A stretch of DNA of 63,033 bases, filler included, from Folioceros fuciformis (taxonomy: Eukaryota): the NCBI GenBank assembly GCA_049999805.1. It is 17 parts of 17 records of this genome, joined end to end, with 100 filler letters (N's around TTAATTAATTAA, not from the genome) between each part and the next. Parts side by side here need not be neighbours in the genome. Positions count along the whole stretch, not along the records: positions 53,181 to 56,058 come from JBNGIO010003757.1; 16 more parts are not named here. The stretch is one strand, 5' to 3'. Position 1 is the first letter of the stretch. Every line of letters starts with the position of its first letter. Made by a program: the position numbers and the translations under genes. Below are positions 3,701-63,033 of the stretch, piece after piece. A model generated the notes under the pieces. The model saw only the letters and a list, made by a program, of their open reading frames with translations. It searched no databases and was not told the DNA's origin.

Positions 3701-3872
3701 TTTTAACGATTGCCCTCATGAAAGACCCTGGCGCTCCAGTCAAACCAAAAGCATTGCGCTTGTGAACTAGGTGGCTCAATGGAGGCACTGAGCCCCCCGC
3801 GGGGGGACTCAACAGCTGGATCATGGGCGGCAATAGTCGGCATGTCTAATAAGCCGAAGACATCGGGGCAAA

Positions 3873-10305: not shown

Positions 10306-11416
10306 ATGCCAGTGTGTGTGCTACTAGCAATGAGAATGGGTTCTGTAACAGAAATTTTGGCCTTAGCCTTCACCATAGGGATATTGGTACTTAGTGAAGT
10401 AGGCTTAGGTAGCTCGGTTGAAATTAGGAGCCCACAATGGAGGACTGAGGGCGGCAAGTCCAACTTCCCAGAGGACCAGTCCTTTGAGGATGAAGCTAAT
10501 TCCATTGCTACAACCTTTGCAAGACGATCTCAACAACAACAACATATGCATAGAGTGCAAGAGCAGCTCCAAGTTGGCAATCCTGATCGTGAAAGTTCTC
10601 TACTAACTACCAACTTGATGGCATCTAACAAGGGATCAAGGAAGGCTAGGCCAAGAGAGGTGACTGTAGACAAGTTCGCATACTTCGGATACAATGGGCA
10701 ATGGAGGTCGCACAGCAACCTCACCTATGCATTGTCGACGACGGATGTGACAGCGCTGGTTCCACGCAAGGACATCCTGTTCGCCTTGGAGGGCGCGTTT
10801 CGGACATGGGCAGCTGTGGTGCCGCTCACCTTCGTGCTCTTGGATGATGCATACTTCGAGTGGGCCGACATCAAGGTGAGCTTCCTCATGGGCGACCACG
10901 GCGATGGGCAGCCCTTCGACGGTGCACTAGGTGTACTCGCCCACTCCTTCGCCCCCGAAGATGGCCGCCTCCATCTCGACCTTGCAGAGCAATGGAGCGT
11001 CGACGTGTTCTCCCCAGAATCACTACTTCTCCAAAACACCATGGACCTCCAATCTGTCCTCCTCCACGAAGCTGGCCACCTCATCGGGATGGGCCATTCA
11101 GAGGACCCCTCTGCTGCCATGTTTGCCGACATCTCCCCCCGCCAGGTAAAAAATTGCACACTCTGCTACATCCTTCCATCATTCTCTCAATCCAATCCTG
11201 AACTCGAGCTCTCAGCTCTGTTTTGCTGTGCAGGTAAAGCATGACCTGAGTATCGATGACATTCAAGGTGCACAATCTCTATACGGCCCTAGCCATGCCT
11301 TTCAAGTCCTTCAGGGCGTGATCGCGCCCAGCCCATCTTCTACTCTTGGCAACAGCCGCCATTGCCACCTCTCCCTACTTCTTCTCTTGCTCCCCATCTT
11401 TCTAGTCGTAACCTGA
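10306..11416 (+). CDS. Matrix metalloproteinase (peptidase M10A), 2 exons 10306-11145 and 11234-11416, ~340 aa
   Basis: Hydrophobic N-terminal signal, GDHGDGQPFDG, LAHSFAPEDGRLHLD, zinc motif HEAGHLIGMGH and Met-turn AAMFA. An 88-bp GT-AG intron restores LSIDDIQGAQSLYG. The hydrophobic C-terminus is GPI-signal-like. Confidence 0.93.
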
Positions 11417-23249: not shown

Positions 23250-24754
23250 TCACGGCCGACCCTTACAACTGCAACAGCCATCTGAGAATTGATGTACACG
23301 GTATCCATCCCTTACAACAATGTGTCTTTGTTCAAGCCTTGACATGAGCTCCGTGGAACTGTGGCAGTCACTGCACATGCGTAGATTTTTCGTTACCACC
23401 AGAGGAGTGCCGCTCGGTGTGTTCAAGAGGCCAAAAGCCAGAGCTAGCTTCTCAGCATGCCCGCAAAGCAAATCTTCCTTTTCCATCTCAGACAGTGGGT
23501 TCAACACCAACTTTGTTTGTGGTACATGTCCCCCTTCCTGCTTCAGCCGGGCATTCGTGCTCTCCACTTTAAGCGCAATATTCTCTTTCCTTTCTCCCAC
23601 GAAAAATCTATGCACCTCCTTATTCACCTCAATGGTCGCCACTGCAGGTTTCTTGTTAGCGCCTGCTACTCTTCTCTGTGTTTCTATCCTGTCTACATCG
23701 CCCCACATACCTGCATCTGCGTAGGTATTGGCCATGAGAACATAGGCCGACGCCCTTTGAGGTTCCAGCCTAACAATCCTTTCGAAACACCACACAGCCC
23801 TTTCTACATCCCCGTGACTTTTGCAGGCATGCAACAAAGATATCAAGCCCACAACATTACTCTGGTACTCACATGACAATAGCATCGTCTCTGCCTCATC
23901 TAATTGGCCAGCACGCCCAAGAAGATCAACCATGCAGGTGCAATGCTCAACAGTAGGTTTGATGCCATGCTCTTCAGTCATGGAATCAAAGTGTTTTCGA
24001 CCCTCGTGGACCAATCCCTCATGGCTGCATGCTACTAGGACGTACGTAAGTGAAAGTAACATCATTAGGATGAGCACCCGCAACCAACATCTCCTCAAAA
24101 CAAGCTAGTGCCTTGTGACCTTGACTAAAAGCACCTTACCCAGAAATCAAGGCATTCCATGTCACCACATCCTTCGCGACCATGCTGTCAAAAACCTGGC
24201 GTGCATCTTCCATTTCACCACATTTTGAATACATGTCCACCAGGCAGGTGCCCACACTACGTTATCCAGCAGTCCTCGTTGGACAATCTGTGAGTGAAAC
24301 TGCCTGCCCATATGTAACGCACCCGTAAAGCATCTAGCTTGTCCACTCTGGTGAGCACATCCATGGCCTCCTCTAGCCTACCTCCACATGCATACATGCG
24401 CAAGATATGCATTTCCTGCTTACACAACGTGCCCACTTTAGCAGCAGAAACGACTCCCATTTCCTGCACACCTCCCAGATTCAGCCTTACGGAGATCTGG
24501 ACTCGGGAGGAGAGGCACCATGGCCCATTTGCATATCCAAGTAAATGAGCTGCTCATCAACCCAAGCTGGCTTAAACATACTGTTCAACCACAGCACCTC
24601 GCCGGACCCCTTGCGCCGGAAGTCAGGGGAACGGGAGCTCTTATTACCTCGTCTGTTATCCCACCACAAGGTAGGGTCCAGAAAAAATTGTTGCCACAAG
24701 TGCTCCTGCTCCTGGCAACGCACATCGCTGGAAAACCCGTCCACAGATGGGTTT
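23250..24754 (-). pseudogene. PLS-class PPR-E-DYW:KP (GRP-type) RNA-editing factor pseudogene with N-terminal OSB/PDF-like motif
   Basis: PDF-like WWDNRRGNKSSRSPDFRRKGSGEVLWL; PPR motifs LVDMYSKCGEMEDARQVFD and DVVTWNALISG; then KKPAVATIEV, HAEKLALAFGL, CSDCH and terminal CSCKGRP*. Stop at 24136-24138, 4-bp duplication frameshift near 24040-24048, most of the PPR array missing. Confidence 0.9.
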
Positions 24755-26020: not shown

Positions 26021-29000
26021 TGGGCAGAATAGTCACTGAGGCCAAGCCCCCGCATATGTAGATAGTGGGGGAGCTTGGGCAAACCCTTTGTAAAAATGTC
26101 TGCCGTGTTTGAGTCTGTACTTACGTGACTAACCTTGATGATGCCCCTGGATACCAGATCTCGAATATAGTGATGGTGCACTTCGATGTGCTTCGTTCGT
26201 GCGTGGAAGGTTGGCTTGGATACAAGCTCCAGGGCTGAAGTATTGTCACATAAGATAATTGTGGGATCTGGTTGCGGGTGGCCAAGCCCTATAAGGAAAC
26301 TTCTTTCCCACTCTGCTTCTTTGGCTGCTTCAGTCATCGACTTATATTCAGCTTCAGTGGAGCTAAGGGCAATGGTGGTCTGTTTTTTGCTGCTCCAGGT
26401 GACTGCTGCTGAAGCAAGAAGAAAACAATAAGAGGAAATGCTACGCCTGGAGTCTGAATCCGAGGCCCAATCAGCGTCTGAGTAACCAGATAAGGTGAGT
26501 CGTTGGTCCCCACTTCTCCTGTACATGAGGCCATAGTTTATCGTGCCCTGGAGATAACGAAAAATTCGTTTCGCTGCTGTCCAGTGAATTCTCCCGGGTC
26601 ACTCAAGGAATTGGGATACTGTGCTGACAGCGTACAGTATATCGGGCCGTGTCCAGTTGGCGACGAACAACAAGCTACCCACTGCGTGCCTATAAGGTAC
26701 GCCCTCCATGTCCTTCAATTCATCTGGGGTTTGTGGGCTCTGCCGGCGAGTTAATTTGGTGCCAACTGCATATGGAGTCGTGGCAGGTCTTGCCTGGTCT
26801 AGATGGAACTTGCGTAGGATTTCAGTTATATACTTTCTCTGGTGTATATACATGATCCCAGCATCGCGAACTCGCAGAATTTGAATGCCTAGGCAGTACC
26901 TCAACTCTCCAATGTCCTTCATGTCAAACCTCTGGTGTAGCTGCTTCTTTACGTCTGCTAACAGTGCATGGTCGTTTGTAGCAAGGATCAAGTCGTCGAC
27001 GTAGAGAGCAAGGAGCACAGTAGAGGTTCCTCTCATGAGCATGTATACGTTTGTGTCAGCAGTATTCTAAACGAAGTCAATGCTGATTAGGTAAACATGC
27101 ATTGTAAGATACCATACCCTGCCGCTTTGCTTCAGTCCGTAGATACATTTCAATAACCTGAGAACTTGATGCGGGTGTGCAGGGTCTTCGTAGCCTTCGG
27201 GCTGAAACATATACAGCTCCTCCTCAAGGATCCCATACAAGAAGGCAGTGCATACGTCCATTTGCTCGAGGTCAAGGTCAAACTCTGTGGCATAAGCAAG
27301 GATGAGGCGAATGGATTGGCTGCGAACTACAGGTGAGAATGTTTCCTGGTAGTCCAGCCCTTCCACTTGAGTGAATCCTCGCGCCACAAGTCGTGCTTTG
27401 AACCTGGCGACTTCACCTTTGGCACTTAATTTTAGTTTGAATGTCCATTTGCAGGATATGGCTTTCCTGCCTGGAGGGAGATCAGTGAGCGTCCAGGTTT
27501 TGTTCTTCACCAAGGATTGGTATTCTTCCTCAACTGCCTGCTTCCATTGCTCACGTTGAGGACCTGTGAATGCCTAAGTTAATGTAGTGGGTTCCTCAGG
27601 TAAGGACAAAGCTGGTCCGAGGGAGGGGATTGCATGGGTTCGAAAATCAGTGGATGCATAGGGAGCTTCCTTCCATTCAGATGGAGGAGGTCTGTGACGT
27701 GTGGAACGGCGGGGGAGATTGACATCTGGGTCAACCTGGGGTGGAGGCTGTGCAGGGTTAGCCAAGGTATGTGTATCATCAGCTAGCCCTACATCCCCCT
27801 CTGCGTCCAACACAGGTTGAGCAGGGATGGCATCCATGGTGTCTGCATCTATGGTTTCGCCTTCAACATATGCATCTGCGTCTGCCTCAATGTGATGGGG
27901 AAGGTCTAAATTGTGACTTTCTGCAGGCATAGGAGGTGGAACCACGGGTTCAGGCTCATCATCATCAAGGGGGAAAACAGCAGGTTGATCAGCCGGAGAG
28001 GAAGTTGTAGGGTCCTCTGGTGGGCTGTGTTCGGAGGCAGGACTATGGAGTTCAACAAAGGTGACACTCCTAGCAAGAACAATAGTATCAGTGTCTGGGT
28101 TATACAGCTTGTAGGCTTTTGAGTGTTCACTGTAGCCAACCAGGATAAGTGCCTCAGCGCGGCTGTCTAACTTATGTCTTTTCTCCTTAGGTATATAGGC
28201 ATAAGCGCGGGATCCAAAGACCCGGAGGTGGAGGAGGCTGGGCTTCTTGTTCCAAAATACCTCAAATGGGGTTTTGTTTGGGACAGTGCTGGTGAGGACA
28301 CGGTTGAGGATGTACGTCGCTGTCACTATAGCCTCTGCCCAATAACCCTGAGGTAAGCCTGCCCATAACAACATGCTTCTTGTCATGGACAGTAAAGTCT
28401 GATTTTTCCTTTCTGATACTCCGTTTTGTTGGGGCGTATAGGGCACTGTTGTCTGGTGCAGTATCCCATGAGACTGCAGCAGGTCTTCAAAGTTGGAGTT
28501 AACAAATTCAGTGCCATTGTCTGTCCTAAAGGTCTTCAAGAGCTGCCCAGACTGTCGCTGAGCAGTGGTAAGCCAATCCTTGAAAAATCCATAAGTGTCA
28601 CTCTTGAGTTCCATTGGAAATGTCCATGTGTACCGGCTGTAGTCATCAGTTATAGTGAAGAAGTAGCGGGCACCTCCTAGTGAGGGCTCATGGACCTTGC
28701 CCGAGATGTCAGCATGGACTAACTCAAGGGCTCTTGTGGCTCTCTGTGCAGGTGAGTTAGGGAGTGGCAGCTCCTTTTGCTTGGCTAGTATGCAAGGTTC
28801 ACACACAGGTAGTTGTTTAAAGCATTTCGGTAGAGGCTCACGATGGCATCCTAAGACTGACATGTCTATCAACTTGGACTTGTTGATGTGGCCCAAACGG
28901 GCGTGCCAAAGCAAGGCCTGCTATTCTTGACTTAGGTTAAAAGATGAGGTTGAGTGAGTAGCCTCATATGAGTAGCCTGTACAGGTAATGTTAAGTCTGT

Positions 29001-30561
29001 ACAGGTTACTTTCGGGCAGACCCTCGAAAACACATGTGTGGGGAGAAAACTGCCTGTAGAAACAGTAGTGTTCAGAGTCTGCATGCATGTAGAACATGCG
29101 TTGACGCATGATCTGACTCATAGACATGAGGTTTTTGGCGATGCTTGGGACATAGATGACATCATCTAGGGTTAACTCTGTGCCATCGTGCAGTGTGAAG
29201 ACACAAGTGCCTCTACCCTGAATAGGTAAGCTTGACTTACTTTGTTCATCCGCAAGAAATACCTGACCCCCTGTTTGCGTAAGGTCTAGGGTTCTGAAAA
29301 GTTCCTTTTTCTTGCAGATGTGAGTGGTGGCCCCCGAATCAAGATACCAGCAGTTGTCATCACTCTGTGTGCTGAACAGGCATACTGTAAGTATCTTCAC
29401 GGGGGCCTTGGAGTCTGATTTGCTCTGCTTCACTGCTACATTTGCTGTAGCCTTTGGCTAACGTTGGGGCTCACCTGCCTTCCGTTTGCGGCATTCTCTT
29501 GCCCAGTGGCCAGGGAGGCCACACCAGTTGCAACTGCCAGGGCGTTTGGCAGCATTGGAGGGTTCTCCCCTCTGTCCTTGTGCTATTCCTCCTCGGAACC
29601 TTGACTTGCCTTTGCGGAAATTGGTCACTAATGCTTTCTCCCCTCTGTTCTTGGCGGCTGAGGAGAAAGTGCGACTCTGCTCCACCTGGAATAGTGCACC
29701 AATCACCTCCTCCAGGGTGATGGTCACTGACTGGCCGGAGGCAGCAGCTGCAGCACGCATGGGACCGTTTTGACTTGTCACAAAGGTCTGGTACGAGGCA
29801 GGGAGACTGGTCAGGAGCTGGGCGATAGCGTCCACTTCCGACATCTTCTCTCCTGTCATAGCTGTAAGTTGAGCACGTAGGTGTCTAAACTTGCAGACGT
29901 GGGAGGCTACTTTGTCTCCCTCCTTCATTTTCAGAGAGTAGAACTCCTGCCTTACTGCGCATAGAGTCATCATGTTCTGAATTTTGTAGGTTTTCTCTAA
30001 CTGATCCCATATGGCGTGTGCAGATGTGAGGTATTCCACATCAGGGACAAGGTCTGAGTCCAGTCCACCAATAATCAGCGCGACAGCAATTGCATTGAAC
30101 TGCTCCCATTTGGCAATCTCTTCTGGGGTTGGTGCTGGGCTGCTGGACGGGTCGGGTTTGAGGTATGTTCCATCTACAGTGGTCCAAACTCCCCTGGCCA
30201 GCAAGGTGGCCTTCATCCTCACCCTCCAGACGTTGTACCCATGCCCTTTGAACCTATCCTTCTCCTTAAGTTCCGAGGTGAAGGTAGGTAGACTGCTAGA
30301 TGCCATAGCTGATTGTGGATTAGGGTGTAGTGTGAGGTTCTGGAAACCACAAATGAGGGAATTAAGCTGTGCAGCGGTGAACATGAACACCTAAGCTATG
30401 CAGCCGTGATGGTGGGTCTCACTGCTGCCTGTCCTTGTCTCACTTACTCACGTCGTGTTGTCTCCAACGAGACCTAGTTGGGCGCAGAGTTTAGGGGCCA
30501 TCAACAGTGGTGGTTGCTGGATCCTGAGCCCAATTATAGGTCTCGCCAGGGGTAATTGCAA
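26021..30561 (-). mobile_element. Near-complete Copia gag-pol (gag, protease, integrase, RT, RNase H) in one frame with 5 premature stops
   Basis: ORFs 29458-30390, 28921-29433, 27574-28914, 27067-27513, 26599-27042 and 25984-26526 share one frame. Motifs CNWCGLPGHWAREC, WYLDSGATTH, RTDNGTEF, QQNGVSER, LYVDD, YSDADWA, ADIFTKGL. Confidence 0.96.
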
Positions 30562-30661: not shown

Positions 30662-31647
30662 ATAGTCTAAGAGGTGGTAGATCCTTGTGGTGGTAGGGCC
30701 AGAAGCTCATTGGTGGCAAGTTGTGCTAGAAGTCTAAATAAGTGGCTGGTGACAGCCGGATAGGCTATTAAAATAATATTTCTCAAGTTAGAGAGAGGTG
30801 AACTCAGAGAGAGAGATAGGCTCCTATAAGATCAGGTGAGCCTGTAGGAGGAGGGAGTCATTCACTTTTGGGAGTCAGTCTATCTCTTTGTGAGCTCTTG
30901 GAGGTCCTTTCTTCATGAGCTCTTGTGGTCTGTCCCAGCTTGGTTTAGGACCTGCAGTGTGTTGCCGGCTGTGCAACGTCTGGTAGGATCGCNNNNNNNN
31001 NNNNNNNNNNNNNNNNNNNNNNNNNNNNNNNNNNNNNNNNNNNNNNNNNNNNNNNNNNNNNNNNNNNNNNNNNNNNNNNNNNNNNNNNNNNNCTCAACCT
31101 GTCCACTCTTGTTCCTTGCTTGGTCAAGTGCTGTAGGCCGGCCATGTCTCATGGCGTCTGGTAAGGTTGTGGGGAGGAGATACCCAAGAGGGGAGTGTGT
31201 TCCCTTCTTCCTTTTGTTTGGGGTTAGTCTAGTGACTCTTGCCGGGTAGGAGGAGTCCGTAGGGAAGTGTAGAAGGTAGTGGTGTCGTTGCTGGTTGCTG
31301 GTAGTTGCTGGTGTTGGTGCTGGAGTGAGAGAGTGAGTGAGGTGTGTGAGGGAAGACGCAGATCTGAGAGGTTAGAGTCGTTGTAGTGACAGGAGTGAGT
31401 TTGTGGGCACCGAGAGAGGTGCAACTGACCGCCGGACAGCGAGGCCTGTCCTACGCCCGATCGGAGCTGGAGGGGAGCCCTCGAATCCATCATCGAGTTG
31501 ATCAAGTCCGACCCTCCATCCACAGCAGCAAGGAACCCCATCGCTCGTTCGTGGGAACGAAACCCAATGTCTCAACGACAGTGGGATAAGTGTGGCCACT
31601 AAAGGTGGAACCCGTTGGCAATCGGTGCCCGGGGTTTTGCCTCCACA
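30662..31647 (-). mobile_element. Family A LTR-like repeat inserted into the gag of the adjacent Copia
   Basis: Ends ...GGGGTTTTGCCTCCACA at 31647, directly abutting Copia gag sequence. Confidence 0.9.
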
Positions 31648-34600
31648 AATAGGCATCGTCAAACCCAACACTGGGACCGGCCACGCCCTTTTCACTTCTG
31701 GTAGAAGAGGAGGTTTTCGAGGCAGAGGACGAGGAAACTTCTCAACCAGAAGGTTCTTCGATGCACCTACACAACAAGGTGGACGTCAGGGCACATACGC
31801 CAACAAGACGAATGACAAAAGAACAACAAAGGGAGCCTGCAACTGGTGCAGGATCCCTAGCCATTACGAGCACGAATGTAGAAAGAAACTTGCTGGTGAG
31901 CCCAGGCGGAAGTCACCACGAAATGAAGTTCATACTACGACAGCTGGAAGAGCACTTGCTGCAAGCTCTATTCTAGCAGTCTGCCTCACTCTCACTAGGA
32001 CAAACACCAACAGATGGTTCCTCGACTCAGGAGCCACTACTCACATCTGCAGTAGCAAGGATATGTTTACTTCTTACCATGGAGTATTATCCGACCAGCA
32101 CCTGCTATTGGGAGACGACAGCGCACTCCCTACTGAGGGATCTGGAGAGGTCCAATTACAATTGTCGACAGGCGAACCCCTCACCATCAATGGAGTCCTA
32201 TATGTCCCTACCATGACGAAAAATCTCCTTTCGGTCAGAAAACTGGCAACTGAACATGATCTCGTAATTACATTCCAAGGTAACCACTGTACTATCCACC
32301 ATTCCAAGGATCTTCATCACAACGCCTTGGCCCATGGCTTACCTTTCAATGACCTTTACCTTCTTAATATCCATTCATCTTCCTCCCTCCTCGTCATCAG
32401 TTCAGCATCTAGTACTCCTAGTGAGTCACTCCTCTGGCACTGTCGTGCTGGTCACATGCATCCACGATACCTCAACATGCTCGCAAACCCAAGCATGTAC
32501 AAGGATCCAGTTAAACTCAACATCCCTAAAGATTTTTTCTGCGAAATTTGTCAGTATGCCAAACTCACCCAGCTTCCCTTCAAGGATTCTTCTCCCACTC
32601 GTGCTCATCGCCTTCTTGAAATAATCCATTTTGACATCTGTGGACCTATGAGTAGAGCATCCTTTGGTGGTCACTCATACTTCATCACATTCCTTGATGA
32701 GTGGAGCTGTTTCTGCCATGTCTATTTTTTACGCCACAAAGATGAAGCTCTTTCATGCTTCCAAGATTTTCTCCTCACAGCTGAACGCCAAACTGGCTTC
32801 AAGTTAACCACCCTACGAACAGACAACGGGGGTGAGTACATTAGTCACTCCTTTCAAGAGTTTTGTAGGTCAAAAGGCATCCTTAGACAGCTAATAGTAC
32901 CCTATACTCCATCTCAAAACCCCTTCGCAGAAAGACTGAACAGATCCCTTCTCGAAATCTCCCGCTCTCTCCTTAAGCTTTCAGGTCTTACCAAGGGCTA
33001 CTAGGCCAAAGCTGTCTGTACCTCCAACTACCTTAAAAATAGACTGCCTACCAAAGATCTTCCAGCTGCCTTTGCCCACATCGCTGATGAAACTCGAAAA
33101 AAAGTGGGATGATAAGGCCCGGAGACTTCTCTTCGTAGGTTACTCAGACCAGGTCAAAGCCTACAAACTTTTCGACCCAAGTACCAGAGAAGTTATCCTC
33201 TCTCGCAGCGTCCACTTCAATGAGTCTCACCTACTCCAAGCTTACCTCACTTCCTCCCTTAACTCCACACCTTTGCCTGCTCCCAGCTCTTTTGGTCGTC
33301 TTCCTGTTGACTCCCCTGCTGCTCTTGAGGGGGCCACTACACATGATGCCGACCAAGACCCACAGGTTGATGCCAACCAAGACCCACAGGTTGATGCCGA
33401 CCAAGACCCACAGGCTCCTCAGCAGGTCACTGCACCAGGCTCAGCCACTTCAGGGCCTTTACCTACACAACACAACCTTGACTCAGTACAGGACACAACA
33501 GGCACCCTTGAGGCACTTGCTCCCGTTGTAAATTCACAACCTCAGCCTCATAACTTACCAGTTCCAACGCAGCATGTGCCCAGGAGATCCACTCGGCATC
33601 GCCCTCCTAGGAGCGAATGGAAGGAACCACCATACCTTCCCGGAGACACCCTTTCATCTCGGAGCACATCTCAGGATGACACCACACCTGAAGAACCTCC
33701 TGCACACAAGCATACTCATCAACTCAGCTTGGCACTCTATCAAGCTTTATCAGCCATTGAAATGCAGAATGTATCTCAATCAATTGAGGAAGCCTTCAGC
33801 ACCCCCGAGTGGACAAAGGCAGCCAAATCAGAGTTTGATTCACTAATAACAAACAAAACTTGGAAGCTCGTTGATTTACCACCTGGCTGGAAACCCATCT
33901 CCTGCAAGTGGACTTTCCGGAGGAAGTTAAACCCCGATGGTACAGTATCTAGATACAAGGCCAAGCTCGTAGCCCGGGGCTTCAGTCAAGTCCCAGGCTT
34001 CGACTATGAGGAAAACCGACTTTACAGCCCAGTGGTAAAATCAACATCCATCAGAATCTTGCTCGCGTTTGTTGCTTAGTATCGTCTTGACATTCACCAG
34101 GTTGACGTCAAGACAGCCTTCCTCTTTGGCACCTTGAATGAAGATATCTACATGCTCCAGCCACCTGGCTTCATCAAGGACCATAGAAAAGTCTGTAAGC
34201 TTATCAAGTCACTATACGGACTGAAACAATCAGCTCAGGTCTGGAATGAAACCGTAGATCTATTCCTAAAAAAGTGTGGCTTCTTACCCCTCACTGCAGA
34301 TCCCAACATCTACCTCCTTAGACAGAAAGAGCATTTCGTAGTAGTCACCCTCTATGTTGATGACAACTTCATATTTGGTAGTAGCCTTGAAATCATCAAG
34401 TATGTCAAAGACCTGTTAGCAAAAGAGTATGATGTTGTAGACTCAGGACCCCTCAAATATGCCTTAGGTGTCCAATTCGAGCGTAACCTAGCCGACCACT
34501 CTTTCTTTATTCACCAACAAAACTATGTGGATCAACTTCTAGATAGGTTTAACCTGAAGGACGCTAGGCCTGTATCTACTCCAATAGCTGCAGGAGAAAA

Positions 34601-48740: not shown

Positions 48741-51700
48741 TGTATAGTGAGAGAGTGGCTCTTTGGCATGCCATACCTGCGACACCGGCACGCACCTAAT
48801 GAAGGATTGCTTCCGAAGCTACATGGTGAAGGAGGAGAGGAGAAAAGAGAGGTCTCGCTCTCAGTGTCTCAATAGCAAGGGAGCTCAAGGGGGTATTTAT
48901 ACCCTTTAGAAGAGCTCCCTATGAAGCTTCACAAGAAGCGCACAAGAAGCTGCGCAAGAAGCTTCCTACAGATTAGCTTAAGCTAATCTAAACTAATGGT
49001 ACTTAACTAGACACTAATCTTAGACTAAACACATTAGTCTAAGTACATTGGGTTTTAATAACCCTACAACCTCCCACTTAAAGGCCAATTTACCTTCATA
49101 GGAGAGTAGTCTACCTCATGCCCATGAGTGTCTGAGCTTGTGCGAATTGCTCCGTAGAGAGCCCCTTGGTAAGAACATCTACAGGGTTCTGACTGGTGTG
49201 AACTTTGACAAGCTGTACCCTCTTGTCTTCCAACACCTCTCGAATGAAGAAATACTTCACTTCCACATGTTTGGTCTTTGCATGAAACACTGGATTCTTC
49301 ACCAATTGGATAACACTCTGGCTATCACAATGCAACACTGGCAACTCAACCTTGAACCCCAAATGTCCCACCAAACGAGCAAGCCACATGGCTTCCTTGC
49401 ACACCTCAATCGCAGCAACATACTCGGCCTCTGTGGTAGATAGCGTTATGCACGAAGATTGCCATGAGATTGCCCCTCTAGTGCACATGAAGATATAACT
49501 TGATGTGGACCTCCTTTTGTCCATATCCCTTGTATAATCAGCATCCGTATATCCCACTACATATGCATCTTCACTACCAAAACATAAGCACAAAGCTTTT
49601 GTACCATTCAAGTACCTCATAACTCCTTTCACTGCCTCCCAATGCTTCCTGCCAGGGTTTGACATAAACCTGCTAACCACTCCCACTGCAAAAGCAATGT
49701 TAGGACGTGTAGCAATCATTGCATACATCAAACTCCCTACAGCAGATGAATATGGAACCTTCTCCATTTCAGCTTTGTCCTTCGCAAAACTTGAGCCATC
49801 CTTGCTCGATAGTTTCACATATGGAGGCAATGGAGTACTCAATACCTTCTCCTTCTTGAAACGTTGAAGCACCTTGTTAATGTACTCAGTCTGAGACAAG
49901 TAAAGCAAACACTTCTGTCTGTCTCGACGAATACGCATGCCAAAAATATGGCTTGCCTCTCCCAAGTCTATCATGTCAAAGCGAGCATTCAACTTTGACT
50001 TCAACGCTGAAATCTCATCACTATTAGTCCTAGCAATTAGCATATCATCCACATAGAGGACCAGAATGAGCAAGCTTTCATCCTTAGCTTGCTTCGTATA
50101 GAGGCAATGATCCTCATCGCTAAGCTTGTAGCCTTGAGAAAGCATAAATGAGTGGAACTTGAAATACCACTCCCTGAGTGCCTGCTTTAAACCATAAAGG
50201 CTCTTCTTTAACCTGCACACCAGACTCTCTTTGGCTTTCTCAATGAAACCCTCTGGTTGCTGCATGTATATCTCTTCCTGGAGATCACCATGCAGAAATG
50301 TCGACTTCACATCCATCTGGACAAGTTCCAAGTCGTGTCTCGCAACCAGACCAAGAACACATCGCAAGGTGGTCATTTTGACAACTGGTGAGAAAGTCTC
50401 ATCAAAATCAATACCTTGCTGCTGCTTAAAACCCTTAACAACCAATCGTGCCTTGTACTTGGGTTTGCCATGATGGGGTATGTCCTTCATCTTATACACC
50501 CATTTGCATGGCAACGCCTTCTTGCCCCTAGGCAACCGAACCAACTCCAAAGTTTGGTTCTTGTGGAGCGAATCCATTTGCGACTGGATCGCCTTCTCCC
50601 ACTTGTCCTTGTCAGTCACCGACATGGTCTCTTGATAACAAGAGGGCTCCCCACAATCCGTCAGCATGACATAATCAAAAGATGCAACATACCTGTCAGG
50701 AGGACGTGAGATCCTTTCTGACCTACGAAGCACCGGCGCCTCGATCGGAGCTGGTTGCACTCTCTCCTCTTCTACAAGGGGAGGAACTTGTTCCTCCACA
50801 TCACGACGTTCAACCTGCGTGGGACGGTCAAGTCCATCTTCTTGGAAGACCACCCATCGCACCTCCCCAGTTGGAGTAGGCCTCTTGTGCATCTTGGTCT
50901 CATTGAAGAACACGTCATTGCTGCGAACCATCCTCTTGGCCTCTGGATCCCACAAATGATATATCATCTTACCAGATTCACCATAGCCAAGAAAAATACA
51001 TTTTCTTGACCTAGGAGCCAACTTGTCTCGAAACTCCTTCGGAGCATGGTAGTATGCCTCGCAGCCAAACACTCATAGATGCTTGTATGACGGCTTCTTT
51101 CCAGACCACATCTCCTCTAGAACCTGTTCATCCACAACCCTATTAAGAGATCTGTTAATAAGATGCACCGCAGTAACCACCGCTTCTGCCCAAAATCTGT
51201 TAGGCAATCCAAAGTTTGATACCAAACTACGCATCCTCTCCTGGATGGTCCTGTTCATCTGTTCAGCCACACCGTTCTGGGGAGGAGTATACGGCGCAGT
51301 CAATTCTCTCTTGATTCCCTTGGAATCACAAAATGACTGGAAAGCCTTCGAAACATACTCTCCCCCATTGTTTGTCCTTAGACACTTCAGTCGGAGGCCA
51401 GACTGATTCTCCACAAGGGTAATGAATTTCTGAAACATTGTCCAAGCATCATCCTTTTTCCTCAAAGGATAAACCCACACCTTGCATGAGAAATCATCTA
51501 TGAAAGTGACAAAATAGGATGCACCGCCTAACAATACAGTGGGCATAGGTCCACAAACGTCACTGTGAACCAACTCCAGAGGTTTACTTTTGTGTTTACC
51601 TCTTGCTCCATATGGTGACTTCGTTTGTTTCCCATACAAACAGTGCTCACATACGGAGAAATCGGAGAAGTTAAAAGCAGGAACGTAACCAAAACGAGAT

Positions 51701-53080
51701 AAGATCTTCATTCCTTTTTGAGACATATGTCCTAACCGACTATGCCACAAGGAAACACTTGGTTGTTCCGTTACACAAATCACATGATCCTTGACAGTGG
51801 TCACCTGAAGTGAGTACAAAGTGCCACACTTCGATCCACGAGCTAAAACAAGAGAACCTTTGGAGATCTTCCAGGAACGATCTCCAAACCAACAATGGTG
51901 GCCAGCGTCATCCAACTGCCCTGCGCTAATCATACTTTTTGTCAACTTCAAAACATGCCTAACATCCTTTAGTACGAATGAAGATCCATTGTTGAACGTC
52001 AGCTGCACATCACCAATGCCTGCAATCTCACATGCGTAGTTATTTCCAAGCCGAACACATCCTTTCCTAGTAGCATCATAAGTGCTAAACCACTCCCTAT
52101 GCGGAGTAACATGGAACTCCAGAGTCAATTATCCAATTAGAGAATAAGTGACTCTCCACGGCTGTCAATTGTGCAAAATCGAAGGAAGAAGAGATAAGAA
52201 CATCTCCATCGTCAACAGAGTTCACCTCATCATGTTTGTCACTCGGATTTGCCTTATTGTCGCTCTACTTCTTCTCCTTTCCTTTGTCCTTCTTGAACTT
52301 CTCACAATCCTTCCTGATGTGACCCTTCTTGTGATAGTGGTAACACTCAATATTGTTACGACTACGAGATTTGCTACGGGAAGAACTTCGCTCCTTGTAC
52401 TTCCCCTTTGAAGTGGACCTTCCTCTCACCATGAGGGCATTGGAACCTTTCGAAGGTTCCATATTCTTCCTGTTCACCTGCTCTGTTAACAGACTACCTT
52501 CTACATTCACAACGATAAGACCACTGGTAGGAGCGGAATTACTCAGAGCTATACGAAAGGTGTCCCAGCTCTCTGGTAATGTGGCCAACAAAAACATAGC
52601 TCTCACGGAATTTGGGAATGAGATACCTTGAGATGAGAGCTGGCTGAAAATGGTATTGAACTCATTCAGATGATCGGACATCCTCGTCCCTTCCTTCATC
52701 TTCAAGTCCACCAGCTGTTTCAACTAATACACCTGAGAAGCCGCAATTTGCTTCTGGTACAGGTCACACAACTTCTGCCATAGCTCGTAGCTTGTGGTCT
52801 TGTCTTTCACGTTGAAGTAGACCGACTTCGATAATGTTAGCATGATGGTAGACCTAGCAAGCTCATCTAGATCCGGCCACTCATGCTAACAGGTTTCACT
52901 CCTCGCAACTTGATGAGCTTGATCTGCTTCTTCTGTACTAGAACATTATACACTTGTTCTTTCCAAAACAGTAAGTTAGTACCATCTAACTTCTCGATAT
53001 TGAACATGACGTTTTCTGAGGATGCCACGTTTCAAAATCGATGCAAATCAACCAAAAGGCTAGTTAGAAAACGGTCGGAA
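48741..53080 (-). mobile_element. Near-complete Tnt1/Tork-like Copia element with PPT and 3' LTR (49068-48741)
   Basis: IEKLDGTNLLFWK gag, CYHYHKKGHIRKDC, LWHSRLGHMS, ELVHSDVCGP, PQNGVAE, YKARLVVKGF, LYVDDML, YTDADY, KTKHVEV. PPT TAAGTGGGAGGT; LTR TGTA...TACA. Confidence 0.95.
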
Positions 53081-54059
53081 NNNNNNNNNNNNNNNNNNNN
53101 NNNNNNNNNNNNNNNNNNNNNNNNTTAATTAATTAANNNNNNNNNNNNNNNNNNNNNNNNNNNNNNNNNNNNNNNNNNNNAAATTCGAGCACTTTGGCAG
53201 GACGTGATAGTAGAGTGGCCTGATGCAAGTGGAAAGCTAAGCAAGACTATTTCACTTTGTCTCAACAATAATATGCGAAATAATGGCGACAGAATAAAAG
53301 TTAGACCAGGAATTGCATTTTTAGACAATGGTGGGTGTGAATTTTTTATAGAAGGTTTTGCGCTGGAAAAGGTATTGATAGATTTGGGAGCGCAACCCAC
53401 ATTGATTCATTTCAACACGGCATATGCTATGGGATTGAGAAAGGAAGATATACAGGAGACAAGATGGAAGATAAGCATGGCCAATGGAGGTCTGGAGGCA
53501 GTGATGGGAGAAACTAAGGAGAAATTACAGTTATGTTTTTTAAGCCTGGGACATAAGAAGAGATAGTGATTGATATTAAATGTTTGATTGTTAAATATGG
53601 AAATTTTGATGTTATTTTGGGAACAGAGGCTTTATTCATGCATGGAGGAGGGGTGGACTTATGGACAGAGGAGTTTTAATATCGTCCAAGGTGGCGGCGA
53701 CAAGGTGAAGGAATGAGAGTAGCGACAATTCCACTTAAGTTGCAGTTATATGAGGATGTACAAGATGCGTGTGTGGTAAACATGACGACTTCTTGGGATG
53801 AGCAGGAGGAGAAGATGAAGATGTGAAATTGTGGGTGGAGAGTNNNNNNNNNNNNNNNNNNNNNNNNNNNNNNNNNNNNNNNNNNNNNNNNNNNNNNNNN
53901 NNNNNNNNNNNNNNNNNNNNNNNNNNNNNNNNNNNNNNNNNNNAGCTTGAAAAACGACAGACTGAGTTTCAGCTAGATGATAAAATTCAGCTTTGTACAA
54001 AGAAAGCAGTTTGTAAACTTGAACTTGTGTGTAATAAACTTGTGACATTGAGTTCGTCT

Positions 54060-55031
54060 GAGTATGGATTGGTTGTGGTTGAGTTGTTTGCTGGGATTGC
54101 ATCTGGTCTGGAGGCTATGTTGGCTGCTTGGTATGTGGTCAGACGTTACACTTATTGTGATCCAGATGAAGTTTGTCAGGCAATTGCGAAGGCAAGGGTG
54201 TTCAAATTATGTAAAACGTATCCTGAACAATTAAACGTTCAAGCTGTGAAGCAAGCATTTTCTGCTTGGCCGTAGGATGTTAGGCTTATTGGATTGATAC
54301 AATTTCAAGTGGAGGAAGAAATTGATCTAATAATAGCTGGCTGGGAATGTCAAGGGCATTCAATGGCAGGCAAGGGAAAAGGCTTGTTGGATTATAGGTC
54401 AGTGTTATTTTATGAGCTAATTAAGATTTTGAATTTGGTGCAAAAGCATTAGAGGAAAGAATATGGCTTTTTTATTGAGAATGTAGATTCACAAATGGAT
54501 AGAAGAATGGTGTTGAGACGAGATTTTGAGGAGATCAAGTATTATTTGGGTGAACCTATAAAGTTGGATGCAGTGCATTTTAGATCTAGGGCTCATAGGC
54601 ATTGCTGTTTTTGGAATAACATGATGCCTAGGCATTTGTTGCAGATGCTTGTGAGTCAATAGTGTAGGGATGATGATTTGATAGTTCATCAGATATTACA
54701 TGAGGGACGAGTGTGTAAGTATGTGACTTCAGATGATAGACAACCCTTTTATTGTGTAAATAAAGAAGGGGAGCTCAGGAGGGCGCTACCAACATTTGTT
54801 AGTTTTGAAGGCGCCAATGCATTTAAAGAGGATGGACCTTGAATGATATTTGATACGAAGAGGAAGGTGTGGGATGTGCCATCTCCCTTGGAGAGAGAGA
54901 GGGCAATGGGTTTTGATACAAGTACTACTGAAGTGGAGGACATAACATTTGAGCAAAGGAATAAAAAACTAGGACAAGCTATGGATTTAAATACAGTCAG
55001 GTGGCTTACAATGTCTATAAAAGTTTATTAA
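54060..55031 (+). pseudogene. DNA (cytosine-5) methyltransferase domain inside Gypsy pol, single frame with 4 premature stops
   Basis: Motif I VELFAGIASG (E at 54081), IV IDLIIAGWECQG (Cys 54348-54350), VI FIENV (E at 54477), VIII AHRHCCFW (54591), IX ERERAMGF, X LGQAMDL. Stops at 54273, 54450, 54660 and 54840. Confidence 0.88.
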
Positions 55032-55937
55032 GAGTGGAAGAGAAAGTGGAAAGCTATTGTGAGTACAAGGTTGGAGAGACGTAGTTTGAGTAAAGTAAGA
55101 AGAGATGAAGGTTTAGACGTTGGGGGGGAGACTAAAAGAATGAGAGAGCATGATGAGGTCTTAGGTAATGAGGGTAAGCAAAGCAAGCAGATGAGATATG
55201 GGGCAAAGGTTGCATATGTAGAAAGGAAAGGTAGGAATGTGGCTAGCTCAGCTGTGAGGTTAACGTTTCTGAGAAAAAGGAATGTATGGATTTTCAGTGG
55301 GATATTTCTAATGAGATAACTTTGGAGGATAGGGAGGATTTCGTAAGGATTTTGGAAAGTAGCAGGCAGGTATTTGCTTTTTCCAATAAGGAATTGGGTT
55401 GGCACAAGACGTTTAAGTTTAAGATTCGGCTTAAAACTTATAAACCGGTTTTTAGAAGGCCATATCGTTTGAGTAAACTGGAGAATGAGAGAATGAGATT
55501 GTGGACAAGAAGTGTCAAGAGTTGCTTGAAGCTGGATTGATAAGGTCTTCGAAATCAGAGTATGCAGCAGCTACGGTGCTTCCGCCAAAGAAGGATGTGC
55601 CTGGTAATTAGACAGAAAAGAGAATGTGTAGTGACTATAGGCCGCTTAATAAAGTGATGCCTATGGACAGATATCCAATGCCAACTCCAGAAATTTTTGA
55701 TGCAATTGGTGAATGTAAGATATTTTCAACATTGGATTTGAGAGGTGGTTTTAATCACATTGAAATTGAAGAGGAAGATAAGAAGAAGACTGCTTTTTGG
55801 GGTAATAGATGTTTGTGGGAATGGGTGGTTATCCAATTTGGATTGAAGAATGCTCCTAGTGCTTTCAGAGAGCGATGGATCAAGCATTGAGAGGTTTGTC
55901 GTTCACCAGATGTTACATAGATGATGTAATAATTTTT

Positions 55938-56058
55938 AGTAGCAGTGTGGAAGAACATAAGGAGCATGTTAGGCATGTTAGTAGCAGTGTGGAAGAACAT
56001 AAGGAGCATGTTAGGCATGTTAGTAGCAGTGTGGAAGAACATAAGGAGCATGTTAGGC
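55938..56058 (+). repeat. 42-bp tandem repeat (~3x, SSSVEEHKEHVRHV) right after RT YIDD
   Basis: AGTAGCAGTGTGGAAGAACATAAGGAGCATGTTAGGCATGTT repeated up to the scaffold end. Confidence 0.9.
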
Positions 56059-58081: not shown

Positions 58082-58816
58082 TGCCGGCTGTACAGTGTCT
58101 GGTAGGATCGCGGGCAGCGTCTTGCCGGCTGTACAGTGTCTGGTAGGATCGCGGGCAGCGTGTTGCCGGTTGTATAGTGTCTGGTAGGATCACAAGGTGT
58201 AATGACCAGGGTGTAGGGGCTTGCCCCTAGCTCTTGATTGTAAAGGGTGTGTCTTTCTCTCAACCTGTCCACTCTTGTTCCTTGCTTGGTCAAGTGTTGT
58301 AGGCCGGCCATGTCTCATGGCGTCTGGTGAGGTTGTGGGGAGGAGATACCCAAGAGGGGAGTGTGTTCCCCTCTTCCTTTTGTTTGGGGTTAGTCTAGTG
58401 ACTCTTGCCGGGTAGGAGGAGTCCGTAGGGAAGTGTAGAAGGTAGTGGTGTCGTNNNNNNNNNNNNNNNNNNNNNNNNNNNNNNNNNNNNNNNNNNNNNN
58501 NNNNNNNNNNNNNNNNNNNNNNNNNNNNNNNNNNNNNNNNNNNNNNNNNNNNNNGTGACTGGAGTGAGTTTGTGGGCACCGAGAGAGGTGCAGCTGATCG
58601 CCGGACAGCGAGGCCTGTTCTACGCCTGATCGGAGCTGGAGGGGAGCCCTCGAATCCATCATCGAGTCGATCAAGTCCCACCCTCCATCCACAGCAGCAA
58701 GGAACCCCATCGCTCCTTCGTGGGAACGAAACCCAATGTCTCAACAACAGTGGGATAAGTGTGGCCACTAAAGGTGGAACCCATTGGCAATCAGTGCCCG
58801 GGGTTTTGCCTCCACA
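58082..58816 (-). mobile_element. Family A LTR-like repeat, partial, with expanded internal ~40-bp tandem units
   Basis: Ends ...TTTTGCCTCCACA at 58816. TGCCGG(C/T)TGTA(C/T)AGTGTCTGGTAGGATC x3 at 58082-58191. Confidence 0.9.
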
Positions 58817-58929
58817 GCACTCAAAATAGCTTTCTGTGAAAGGTTCCGAGGAGTGGATGTAGACGGGTATGTTCTGTCCAAACTTGAGAGGCTGCGACGA
58901 AGGCAGAAGGAAACATTGCAAGCTTATGT

Positions 58930-59817
58930 GGTCCTTCACTTCCACATGTTTGGTCTTCGCATGAAACACTGGATTCTTCGCCAATTGGATAGCACTCTGG
59001 CTATCACATTGCAACACTGGCAGCTCAACCTGGATCCCCAAATCTCCCACTAGACGAGCAAGCCACATGGCTTCCTTGCAAGCCTCAGTCGCTGCAACAT
59101 ACTCGGCCTCTATGGTAGATAGCGTTATGCACGATTTCAAACGCGATCACCATGAGATTGCCCCTCCAGTGCACATGAAGACATAACCTGATGTGGACCT
59201 CCTTTTGTCCATATCCCCTACATAATCAGCATCCGTATATCGCACGACAGATGCATCTTCACCACCAAAACATAAGCACAAAGCTTTCGTACCATTTAAG
59301 TACCTCAGAACTTCTTTCACTGCCTCCCAATGCTTCCTGCCAGGGTTTGACATAAACTTGCTAACCACTCCCACTGCAAAAGCAATGTCATGACGTGTAG
59401 CAATCATTGCATACATCAAACTCCCTACTGCTGATGAGTGTGGAATTTTCTCCATTTCAACTTTGTCCTCCGTAGAGCTTGGGCAATCCTTGCTCGATAG
59501 TTTCACATATTGAGGCAACGGAGTATTTAATACCTTCCCCTTCTCCATATTGAAACGTTGAAGCACCTTGTTAATGTATTCAGTCTGAGACAAGTACAGC
59601 AAACGCTTTTGTCTGTCTCGCCGAATATGCATGCCAAGAATATGGCTTGCCTCTCCCAAGTCTGTCATATCAAAGTGACCGTTCAACTTTGACTTCAACG
59701 CTGAAACCTCATCACTGTTAGCCCCAGCAATTAGCATATCATCCACATAGAGGACCAGAATGAGCAAGCTTGAATCCTTAGCTTGCTTTGTATAGAGGCA
59801 ATGATCCTCATCGCTAC
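58930..59817 (-). mobile_element. Copia RT/RNase H fragment, same family as 48741-53080
   Basis: Closely matches 49255-50122 (SDEDHCLYTKQAKD...LYVDDML...YTDADY...KTKHVEVK). Confidence 0.93.
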
Positions 59818-59818
59818 G

Positions 59819-60161
59819 TGTGGAGTGGAACTTGCACCCAAGAACAACCAAGGGCCACACTTCCCCCTTATTATCGTCGTAGTACTAGGATTCGCTCCCA
59901 AGGGAATGAACCAGCGTCAAGGTTTCCTACAATTTCCCCCACTCTGCCCTCATTTGATCCTATCTATCAGCCGGCTCCTAGACCTAACCACACTACAGAA
60001 AAAGATCAGAATCTTGTCTTCAACACCAACTACAACCTCAATTGAATGAGGACTCAGCATCATCTTCAGCTCCCACTCCTAGCTCCGGGTATTAGCCGCC
60101 TCAGCAGCTGAGAGGAGGTTCCAGCCCTGGCCTCAACCTCCACTCTCAGCCCTAAATGCCA
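59819..60161 (+). mobile_element. Start of a TGTGG-type LTR interrupting the Copia RT
   Basis: TGTGGAGTGGAACTTGCACCCAAG...GGATTCGCTCCCAAGGGAATGA resembles the 45892 LTR start. The Copia RT match ends abruptly here. Confidence 0.6.
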
Positions 60162-61556: not shown

Positions 61557-63033
61557 TCAACAATCTACAACAAGCCCCTTATCCTTGCACTTCATTCTGC
61601 ATTCATCACAAAGCCATGCTACTTTCTTGTCTTCCAAGTATCTCACTTGTGTCAACCTAAATAACTTCCACATTTGGCATTGAGATCGAAGGGACTCAAG
61701 AAGCTCTTTCAACCATCCATTCATGACCACTTCCTCATCATCCCTATCTGTGGCTTGCATTAGCACCAATTCACTATTTGCCAAGATGGATTCTGTCCCT
61801 AATGCAAGTCCTTTCATATCATTTGGTATGTCTATCCCAGCAGCCACATGAAGGCCTACTTTGACTAGACAAAAGAACATCTTGGTAGCATTCACCGAAA
61901 GCTTGCGAATCCACTTACAATTTTTCTCCTCTACAAGCATACCATAGCCAGGTTGTCCTTGCACTACGTGATTCCCGCCCCTCTCTTCACACATGAGGCA
62001 TAGATGAACCGCCACACCAATGTGAACCAAAGCTTTTAGCATTTCTACGACAGATACATTATCACGAGAAATGTAAGGACGACAAGGTAAGGTAGAGGAA
62101 CTATGATACCCAATAATGTCACTCATGAGCGACTCCAATAAGCCCAAAGTTTCCCTTTTGAAATTTGTTAGCTCCTCATCACTGAACTTGATGGCCCTCA
62201 ACATCTCCTCTTTATTAGAATCTAATTTTCTCATGACTTCCCCATGATGCATATCTTGGTTGTCCTTAATATTCTTCAACATATATTCCATGCGTTCTAA
62301 TTTTGTTCCACCCAAAAGATCAGAACGACACCTTTCAAAACGAGAACTTGTTGAAGTCATACTTGGTGAAGGATCTTTTGACTTTGAGCTCGTAATTGTC
62401 TCTTTTGATGTCATAGACAAACCATAACCTCCACCTGCACCTTTCTGCTTGCCATGTGTAAGATCATCCACCATTTGACGTTGATCCTTGTGAAACTTTT
62501 CATTCTCCAACACTATCTTGCTCAAGTCTTCTGCGTCCAAAAGCTCTACTATGGCATTGGATGTCAAATGTGGCCCATGTCCACGAATTTCAGGCCAATA
62601 ATGTACACAATCCGATATGTTGCGCATAATAAAGTATCCTTTCCCGCACTTCAAAGCTTGCTTTTCATCTAGAAGACGCTCTCTATAATCCTTTTCAAAC
62701 CATGCTTGCCCATGTCTATCATTGCAAGGTATCAACTTGCGTACACAATAGGGATTGATGATACCTTGCACCAATGTAACTCCCGGGCAACCTTTTGGTG
62801 AAGCACAGAAAGCTCTCAACTTGTCAAGGATATGATGTTTCACAAATGCATTAGCCAAACTTAGACTTTGTTTTGATCTGATGAGTACGTCGACATAACC
62901 ACCAATCATGTCTCTACCACTCAATTCTATGTCGACATAACCACCAATCATATCTTCACCACTCAATTCTATCAAAATATCGATGTTGTCACAAGCCATT
63001 GAGATAAGATTGTAACCAAACTTGTATTGATGA
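61557..63033 (-). CDS. TORNADO1-like (LRR-Roc-COR family) protein, C-terminal part, 5' partial
   Basis: Frame is open to the window edge. Contains CASPKGCPGVTLV, LPCRPY, HLCLMCE...HVVQGQPG and terminal VAWLCDEC, recognised from memory as TRN1 C-terminal motifs. Confidence 0.7.
   Translation of the reverse strand, partial: HQYKFGYNLISMACDNIDILIELSGEDMIGGYVDIELSGRDMIGGYVDVLIRSKQSLSLANAFVKHHILDKLRAFCASPKGCPGVTLVQGIINPYCVRKLIPCNDRHGQAWFEKDYRERLLDEKQALKCGKGYFIMRNISDCVHYWPEIRGHGPHLTSNAIVELLDAEDLSKIVLENEKFHKDQRQMVDDLTHGKQKGAGGGYGLSMTSKETITSSKSKDPSPSMTSTSSRFERCRSDLLGGTKLERMEYMLKNIKDNQDMHHGEVMRKLDSNKEEMLRAIKFSDEELTNFKRETLGLLESLMSDIIGYHSSSTLPCRPYISRDNVSVVEMLKALVHIGVAVHLCLMCEERGGNHVVQGQPGYGMLVEEKNCKWIRKLSVNATKMFFCLVKVGLHVAAGIDIPNDMKGLALGTESILANSELVLMQATDRDDEEVVMNGWLKELLESLRSQCQMWKLFRLTQVRYLEDKKVAWLCDECRMKCKDKGLVVDC

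Follow-up and report, generated by a model that had tools for sequence, protein, structure and literature searches.

A decayed Gypsy-type retroelement fragment with a DNMT3-like methyltransferase domain in the Folioceros fuciformis assembly and its very probable place in the Gypsy-DNMT3 lineage

DNA methylation is the main weapon of a host against transposons, and a transposon that carries a methyltransferase of its own is therefore a standing puzzle. To our knowledge, the sole Gypsy case described comes from one charophyte alga, and the activity of its enzyme has never been shown. Here, we examined positions 53181-56058 of a 63,033-nucleotide stretch of the Folioceros fuciformis assembly GCA_049999805.1 (the whole stretch is called the window below), which a preliminary description made from the sequence alone had read as a Gypsy retrotransposon encoding a cytosine-5 DNA methyltransferase (DNMT) between protease (PR) and reverse transcriptase (RT). 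What is this locus, to which lineage does it belong, and what might such an enzyme do? On the basis of the results below, it is very probably a pseudogenised PR, DNMT and partial RT of a Ty3/Gypsy-type element of the streptophyte Gypsy-DNMT3 lineage; this high confidence applies to the identity of the element and not to its mechanism.

A methyltransferase domain in a decayed Gypsy-type pol

In the window, N44-TTAATTAATTAA-N44 linkers connect 17 short scaffolds, each of which has one 100-N gap, and neighbourhood across the linkers is therefore meaningless. Positions 53181-56058 are exactly one scaffold of 2,878 bp, whose single gap separates the protease from the DNMT and the RT (Table 1). The latter two lie on the same strand of the same gap-free contig, with the RT 288 bp downstream of the DNMT, as had been described.

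When frame 0 of 53946-55031 was translated with X at stops, four internal stops (54273-54275, 54450-54452, 54660-54662 and 54840-54842) were found ahead of the terminal stop at 55029-55031. Motifs I, IV, VI, VIII, IX and X stand in canonical order in this frame and the catalytic Cys is present, so the frame with four stops and ordered motifs that had been noted earlier could be located, the motifs extending over 54081-54986. A profile search with PF00145, the check proposed at that time, gave E=1.1e-8 and 35.3 bits on the read-through translation (curated cut-off, 22), and the outcome that had been named as fatal, a lack of any PF00145 match, did not occur. In the Pfam scan of the read-through translation up to 55319 nothing besides PF00145 was found, and DUF3444 was absent.

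Comparison with solved structures pointed to the DNMT3 group. In a single-sequence phmmer search against PDB the best match was DNMT3A (5.2e-8), and HhaI gave 1.6e-4. A profile of the window's DNMT and seven relatives (profile A1) matched DNMT3A at 1.7e-21, DNMT3C at 7e-20 and DNMT3B at 4e-19, followed by weaker matches to DRM (1.2e-10 to 4e-8), HaeIII (5e-8), HhaI (3e-7) and DNMT2 (1e-4), and neither DNMT1 nor CMT appeared among the solved structures at E<=0.01. The DRM structures aligned to profile positions 26-156 only, as expected because the DRM domain is permuted. Judged by these similarities, the domain classes as DNMT3-type and non-permuted, DNMT3 being the closest among solved C5 methyltransferases (C5-MTases), and both earlier statements, that it is not a DRM and not a CMT, agree with the profile matches.

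The order of the pieces could be assessed against P0039, an intact relative (in a 90% cluster) that consists of one open reading frame (ORF) of 2,240 aa with PR at 625-713, DNMT from 928, RT at 1327-1486, RNase H (RH) at 1551-1680 and integrase (INT) at 1809-1975. The scaffold is colinear with it: residues 863-1173 align to 54075-55007 over 311 aa without large gaps and at 42% identity, and residues 1230-1458 (linker and RT) align to 55295-55979 by tblastn with E=4.5e-49. The absence of introns and the position of the DNMT between PR and RT in a Gypsy pol, both claimed before, are borne out by this alignment.

The RT is spread over three frames, which corresponds to two frameshifts, and has one in-frame stop at 55609-55611. 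PF00078 matched 55489-55890 (4.5e-10) and 55860-56057 (4.4e-7), the latter including YIDD. The 13 best protein matches of this RT all have a DNMT upstream of the RT (46-51% identity), and the group with the order RT-RH-DNMT-INT ranks next (33-46% identity). The protease is more decayed. In a tblastn search, the protease part of P0027, a gag-PR-DNMT protein of Marchantia, matched its two homologous segments with E=4.4e-10, and the Pfam match was weak (PF13975, E=0.042, 14.9 bits, under the cut-off of 28.2). The homology switches frame, and a single-frame reading of 53183-53842 has eight stops. The active-site position (53378-53395) reads I-D-L-G-A-Q, where D-[ST]-G-A was found in five of six relatives checked. 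Thus, PR and then a partial RT are seen in the order of a Ty3/Gypsy pol, and RH and INT would lie past the scaffold end.

This copy is dead, as the earlier reading had it: it has stops, RT frameshifts and a protease active site mutated to D-L-G. No frame is able to give an enzyme, given the four internal stops and the replaced second Arg of motif VIII.

Table 1 Features of the scaffold at 53181-56058 and, in the last rows, of other scaffolds in the window
Feature	Position	Strand	Remarks
Decayed aspartic protease region	53181-53843	+	Homology at 53288-53491 (frame 2) and 53575-53742 (frame 1)
100-N scaffold gap	53844-53943	.	Separates protease piece from DNMT-RT piece
DNMT3-like C5 cytosine methyltransferase domain	54027-55031	+	One frame; PF00145; motifs I, IV, VI, VIII, IX, X
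ELFAGIASG	54081-54107	+	DNMT motif, read-through translation
GWECQGHS (motif IV)	54339-54362	+	DNMT motif; Glu at the canonical Pro position
IENV	54474-54485	+	DNMT motif, read-through translation
AHRHCCFW	54591-54614	+	DNMT motif; second Arg of motif VIII changed to Cys
ERERAMGF	54891-54914	+	DNMT motif, read-through translation
LGQAMD	54969-54986	+	DNMT motif, read-through translation
DNMT-RT linker	55032-55294	+	No domain match; colinear with P0039 linker
Ty3/Gypsy-type RT, N-terminal two thirds	55295-55979	+	Three frames: 55295-55489, 55489-55869, 55863-55979
Perfect 42-bp tandem repeat, 2.9 copies	55936-56058	+	Runs into scaffold end; TRF, 100% matches
DUF4283 ORF	3837-4643	+	Another scaffold
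Matrixin (plant MMP) ORF	10231-11241	+	Another scaffold
PPR protein with E motif and DYW deaminase domain	23253-24104	-	Another scaffold
Ty1/Copia element or fragment	27574-30390	-	gag, integrase, RVT_2 among the Ty1/Copia rows
Ty1/Copia element or fragment	31502-34079	+
Ty1/Copia element or fragment	49111-52723	-	Long open frames of 653 and 351 aa at 49111-52128
Ty1/Copia element or fragment	58190-59884	-
491-aa open frame	61557-63032	-	Runs off window end; no Pfam match at E<=0.001

Relatives, two architectures and phylogeny

Two word-indexed protein searches returned 14 relatives of similar length and 13 of greater length (31-47% identity). In the intact relatives one ORF comprises a CCHC-gag, aspartic protease, DNMT, RT, RNase H and DDE integrase, and the full order PR-DNMT-RT-RH-INT was present in P0039 and P0280. 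A profile search of 1.84 billion representatives (clusters at 50% identity) gave 13,120 matches at E<=1e-3, including 498 clusters at E<=1e-30; the best 150 of the 13,120 all had E<=2e-69, and many of them are polyproteins of 1,500-3,456 aa. Domain mapping of 188 family proteins assigned 12 to PR-DNMT-RT-RH-INT and 90 to a second architecture, RT-RH-DNMT-INT-PHD, whereas 84 were fragments with the DNMT alone and two were without a segment match. Retroelement domains therefore stand beside the DNMT in 102 of the 188.

The second architecture (P0026, P0029, P0204 and 87 others) shares the DNMT family and a Gypsy-type backbone with the window's element, but has the DNMT between RNase H and integrase, carries a C-terminal PHD finger and forms a separate clade. 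It includes a 'pol' protein (KAF8056149.1) of the chlorophyte Scenedesmus sp. PABB004, and our literature search did not find this type described. A further family member, P0006 (HEY9806811.1), is labelled DNA cytosine methyltransferase [Candidatus Obscuribacterales bacterium] and derives from a metagenome-assembled genome (MAG). It falls within the eukaryotic retroelement family treated here, and its 90% cluster includes a 1,359-aa protein, encoded on a 9.3-kb metagenome contig, with an aspartic protease match upstream of the DNMT (PR-DNMT); probably, eukaryotic DNA was binned into the MAG. In the Protein Atlas, the cluster nearest to P0003 is one of PF00145 with mainly Streptophyta among its recorded members, which we take as a lead only.

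Nucleotide context was available from JGI metagenome contigs, in which 350 of 600 candidate stretches encoded a relative; 80 loci were kept. An RT was found on the same strand within 1.7 kb of the DNMT in all 57 loci that had at least 1,300 bp downstream, and the remaining 23 have no room downstream for an RT. These counts, together with the coverage of the element in the source sample (see below), refute two possibilities raised earlier, namely that the DNMT is beside the RT in this copy only and that family members generally lack it. Split direct repeats in the layout A-coding-B-A-B were seen in 4 of 12 loci examined. These four (L003, L020, L042 and L045) are complete related elements of ~9 kb with a DDE integrase; repeat A has 290-330 nt (82-92% identity between copies) and repeat B 165-185 nt.

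How does the family relate to known systems? The paper that the preliminary description had cited, de Mendoza et al. (2018, Nat Commun 9:1341, PMC5890265), does describe, in its main text, KnitGypsy-Dnmt3 of Klebsormidium nitens, an intronless DNMT3-related domain in a Gypsy pol, and the legend of its Fig. 4c gives the A-coding-B-A-B repeat layout for this element. The window resembles it in having an intronless, non-permuted, DNMT3-related DNMT inside a Gypsy-type pol, and the related metagenome loci share its repeat layout. The K. nitens protein GAQ93235.1 (CCHC 297-313, PR 598-691, DNMT from 833), which from species and architecture we infer to be one of the published copies, shares the CCHC-PR-DNMT order and lies with the window on one side of the split from the RT-RH-DNMT-INT group in the DNMT trees (see below). 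The differences are that the window's copy has a land-plant host, is dead and reads Glu-Cys rather than the Pro-Cys of K. nitens in motif IV.

To the same family belong public entries of Marchantia (MARPO_0008s0049 and MARPO_0084s0073), Riccia sorocarpa (R1sor_014310), Sphagnum jensenii and Closterium (strains NIES-53, 54, 65 and 68). They are gag-PR-DNMT or DNMT-RT(-RH-INT) pieces with 31-45% identity over 31-91% of the query; Closterium NIES-53 CAI7855100.1, for example, has the order CCHC-PR-DNMT-RT. None of these bryophyte and Closterium entries is annotated as a retroelement DNMT, and no paper mentioning MARPO_0008s0049 or 0084s0073 in its Mapoly form was found in the literature search. 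The bryophyte DNMTs differ from the window's in forming their own starred clade and in having Pro-Cys. The text of de Mendoza et al. (2018, PMC5890265) does not mention Marchantia, ferns, liverworts or mosses, and later papers of the same group speak, in the passages concerned, of 'streptophytes' (PMC12344493) and 'streptophytes (Gypsy-DNMT3)' (2026 preprint). In the literature searched, which left out supplements and most subscription journals, no DNMT-bearing Gypsy element of ferns, lycophytes, bryophytes or Closterium was found.

Other retrotransposons coding for a C5-MTase are, by the same article text, SymbioDIRS-Dnmt3 and SymbioLINE-Dnmt of Symbiodinium, for which the authors inferred independent acquisition (PMC5890265). 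SymbioDIRS-Dnmt3 is like the Gypsy type in its DNMT3-like domain and A-coding-B-A-B repeats, but has a tyrosine recombinase and not a DDE integrase, and SymbioLINE is a long interspersed nuclear element; CG methylation by SymbioDIRS-Dnmt3 was seen in yeast, in contrast with the Gypsy-type DNMTs so far (PMC5890265). Host plant DNMT3, described for non-flowering streptophytes as a non-permuted methyltransferase domain (MTD) with a C-terminal DUF3444 in the text of Yaari et al. (2019, PMC6453930), is likewise DNMT3-type with a non-permuted MTD, but in the window the MTD is followed by an RT and DUF3444 was not found.

DNMT trees were built with FastTree (168 rows) and IQ-TREE (54 rows: 46 of the PR-DNMT-RT group and 8 outgroup rows). 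In the FastTree analysis, the RT-RH-DNMT-INT-PHD rows formed a clade of 116 rows (support 99), and the window fell inside a 52-row set (support 99) that holds every protein with an RT downstream of the DNMT, including K. nitens GAQ93235.1, four Closterium strains, two Marchantia proteins, Riccia sorocarpa and Sphagnum jensenii. In the IQ-TREE analysis, the 46 PR-DNMT-RT rows, window included, were split from the 8 RT-RH-DNMT-INT rows with a Shimodaira-Hasegawa-like approximate likelihood ratio test (SH-aLRT) value of 95, and two subclades were recovered inside the former, one algal with support 91 and one bryophyte with support 95. The window falls outside the K. nitens/Closterium subclade, although its position inside the group is not fixed: it stands beside P0003, P0135, P0206, P0131 and P0039, and FastTree pairs it with P0003 in what was flagged as a meeting of long branches. 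Thus, the DNMT phylogeny that had been proposed as a check placed the window in one clade with the algal elements and left its exact position unsettled. It should be noted that the DNMTs of Sphagnum jensenii (P0015), Marchantia (P0027 and P0028) and Riccia (P0014) have end branches of 0.04-0.29; moss and liverwort DNMTs closer than the divergence of their hosts predicts hint at horizontal transfer or assembly cross-contamination.

The same DNMT clade, the same PR-DNMT order and the same repeat layout in related loci therefore identify the element as a member of the Gypsy-DNMT3 lineage. The kind of element is already known and the host group is new. Accordingly, the earlier proposal of a land-plant Gypsy-DNMT lineage holds for membership and overstated the novelty, as K. 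nitens has the same PR-DNMT order and the bryophyte entries were already public.

The element in the source sample

Contig pieces at >=80% identity were counted in X1, X2 and X3, three runs of one sample. On 53944-56058 there were 420, 458 and 663 pieces, respectively, most of them <95% identical to the stretch; they cover all 30 bins, and summed contig depth, which is not a copy number, was similar over DNMT and RT. Pieces from other copies run from the end of the DNMT across the linker into the RT (X1 records 4 and 5, for example, with 46-49 differences). The element is present in the source sample as a family of many diverged copies. Among the rows listed, nearly all X1-X3 contigs differ from the window at the stops 54660-54662 and 55609-55611, which confines these stops to this copy or a minority of copies. 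At 55973/55974 the contigs of X1 and X2 depart from the stretch with other sequence, and the 42-bp tandem repeat at the scaffold end probably either arose in assembly or is peculiar to this copy.

The runs also differ in their substitutions. X3 has 135 C>T places relative to the stretch and few T>C, compared with 45 (X1) and 56 (X2) C>T places, and among the rows listed (40 of 532 difference rows) 19 of 19 C>T of the X3 type were CHH. The cytosines of 53944-56058 comprise 153 CHH, 55 CHG and 26 CG. As a lead, X3 resembles a bisulfite or enzymatic-conversion library, in which case the CG and CHG sites of the family would stay unconverted, that is, methylated. A run guessed to be RNA had one 42-nt piece on the stretch, to which we give no weight on expression either way.

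Other scaffolds of the window carry genes for a PPR-E-DYW protein, a matrixin and a DUF4283 protein, and the source is therefore a land plant. The matrixin ORF has at most 49% identity to named plants (lycophyte best; orchids 46-47%) and 71% to one Logan protein, and the host thus lacks a close relative among annotated plants. Ty1/Copia elements and fragments occur on further scaffolds, and an Rfam scan of the window gave no match.

Alternative explanations, catalytic loop and possible function

Several points weigh against the identification as a Gypsy-DNMT3 element of this plant. Only 2.9 kb of this copy are in hand, and these include neither termini nor gag, RH or INT; the protease is joined to the DNMT-RT piece only over the scaffold gap; the window is on a long branch, with no starred set of the IQ-TREE tree holding it; and its DNMT is no more than ~42% identical to any relative. 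The draft is a short-read assembly, and with the gap and the suspicious tandem repeat one might suppose that a host DNMT3 pseudogene came to lie beside an unrelated Gypsy insertion by chance or by chimeric assembly. Order and spacing agree, however, with intact single-ORF relatives, an RT follows the DNMT in every informative related locus, contigs of other copies bridge DNMT end, linker and RT start, the partner domain DUF3444 of host plant DNMT3 is missing, and the best profile matches and the retroelement domains of the family speak for one element; we consider chance adjacency or a chimera extremely unlikely and, as far as the data allow, refuted. The host is a separate matter. All DNA runs with the stretch come from one sample, and residence in the plant genome is therefore tied to that sample. 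The scaffold is a free-standing 2.9-kb piece without host flank, its named relatives are algae and bryophytes, and its words are nearly absent from three runs that bear the same species label but derive from other samples, all of which would fit co-assembled DNA of an associated alga or bryophyte. Those three runs are tiny, however (4 to 49 million letters), hundreds of diverged pieces per run are more in keeping with a large host genome than with contamination in trace amounts, the values of the other 16 scaffolds span the GC content (0.40) and the observed/expected CpG ratio (0.44) of this one, and, with no database relative above ~42% identity, the source would be none of the sequenced algae or bryophytes. 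Such contamination thus appears very unlikely, and we retain the reading of a resident Gypsy-DNMT3 element.

What the enzyme of this lineage might do depends in part on its catalytic loop. Pro-Cys is canonical in motif IV of C5-MTases, and DNMT3A alignments agree with this. In the window's G-W-E-C the Glu is aligned to the Pro of S-P-C in DNMT3A, so that Pro-Cys is not found. Residues were counted in alignment columns across 168 aligned DNMT domains: the residue before the catalytic Cys was Glu in 83 of 167 domains, Pro in 74 and another residue in 10. Glu and Pro toggle at least 15 times on the tree, Glu occurs in both architectures, and motif IV in the 80 metagenome loci was of the Glu type in 39, of the Pro type in 13 and unreadable in 28. 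Glu-Cys is therefore a trait of the family and not decay. The catalytic Cys itself was present in 167 of 167 domains, the Glu of ENV in 168 of 168 and the two Arg of RxR in 167 and 165 of 168. As for selection, dN/dS was calculated for 15 pairs among six intact metagenome loci, which are not host copies; 12 pairs were saturated and the other three gave 0.12, 0.35 and 0.84. Ka/Ks below 0.2 was given for the DNMT in the text of de Mendoza et al. (2018, PMC5890265).

In the intact elements, the DNMT is made within the gag-pol polyprotein between PR and RT, adjoining the enzyme that makes cDNA, and might travel with the RT and methylate the element's own cDNA or fresh insertions. Such self-methylation, which was also put forward in the discussion of de Mendoza et al. 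(2018, PMC5890265), is a plausible but tentative proposal that we rate slightly below an even chance. Against it stand the Glu in place of the canonical Pro in the window and in about half of the family, the informative dN/dS in only 3 of 15 pairs with two values well above the lowest, a DNMT without in-frame stops in only 6 of the 80 metagenome loci, the fact that no RNA run is listed with this stretch, and the lack of methylation by the K. nitens DNMT in yeast (PMC5890265). The Glu of the loop, its toggling on the tree and the yeast result would also suit a DNMT that is no longer a DNA C5-methyltransferase, being instead a binding or targeting module, which could for example steer integration to methylated or unmethylated chromatin, or acting on RNA or an RNA-DNA hybrid. 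On the other hand, domains of either loop type retain the Cys, the ENV Glu and both RxR Arg, and a pure binding module is therefore unexpected. The yeast result was called inconclusive by its authors, as human DNMT3B also failed (PMC5890265), and the SymbioDIRS-Dnmt3 domains are active on CG. We regard this loss of DNA methyltransferase function as unlikely and keep self-methylation as the working proposal. A more far-reaching version appears quite unlikely at present. In it, the Gypsy-DNMT3 lineage would predate land plants and would have survived, with no fewer than tens of copies, in a vascular land plant, possibly a fern; as Glu-Cys instead of the near-universal Pro-Cys is retained in about half of a family of some 500 clusters (50% identity, E<=1e-30), the Glu-Cys enzyme would be active, with altered chemistry or substrate (single-stranded cDNA or an RNA-DNA hybrid, for example).

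This copy itself is ordinary; of more value are the findings on the family, namely its Glu-Cys loop, its size and the occurrence of the second architecture in a chlorophyte. The lineage reaches land plants, with the entries of Marchantia, Riccia and Sphagnum and the diverged multi-copy family of this plant, and the family as a whole is large (498 clusters at the stricter threshold), with two architectures and two types of catalytic loop. Its relatives supply natural ORFs for asking whether, and on what substrate, these enzymes act. If an active Glu-Cys enzyme were confirmed, plant retroelements would write their own 5-methylcytosine and may have shaped the methylomes of their hosts.

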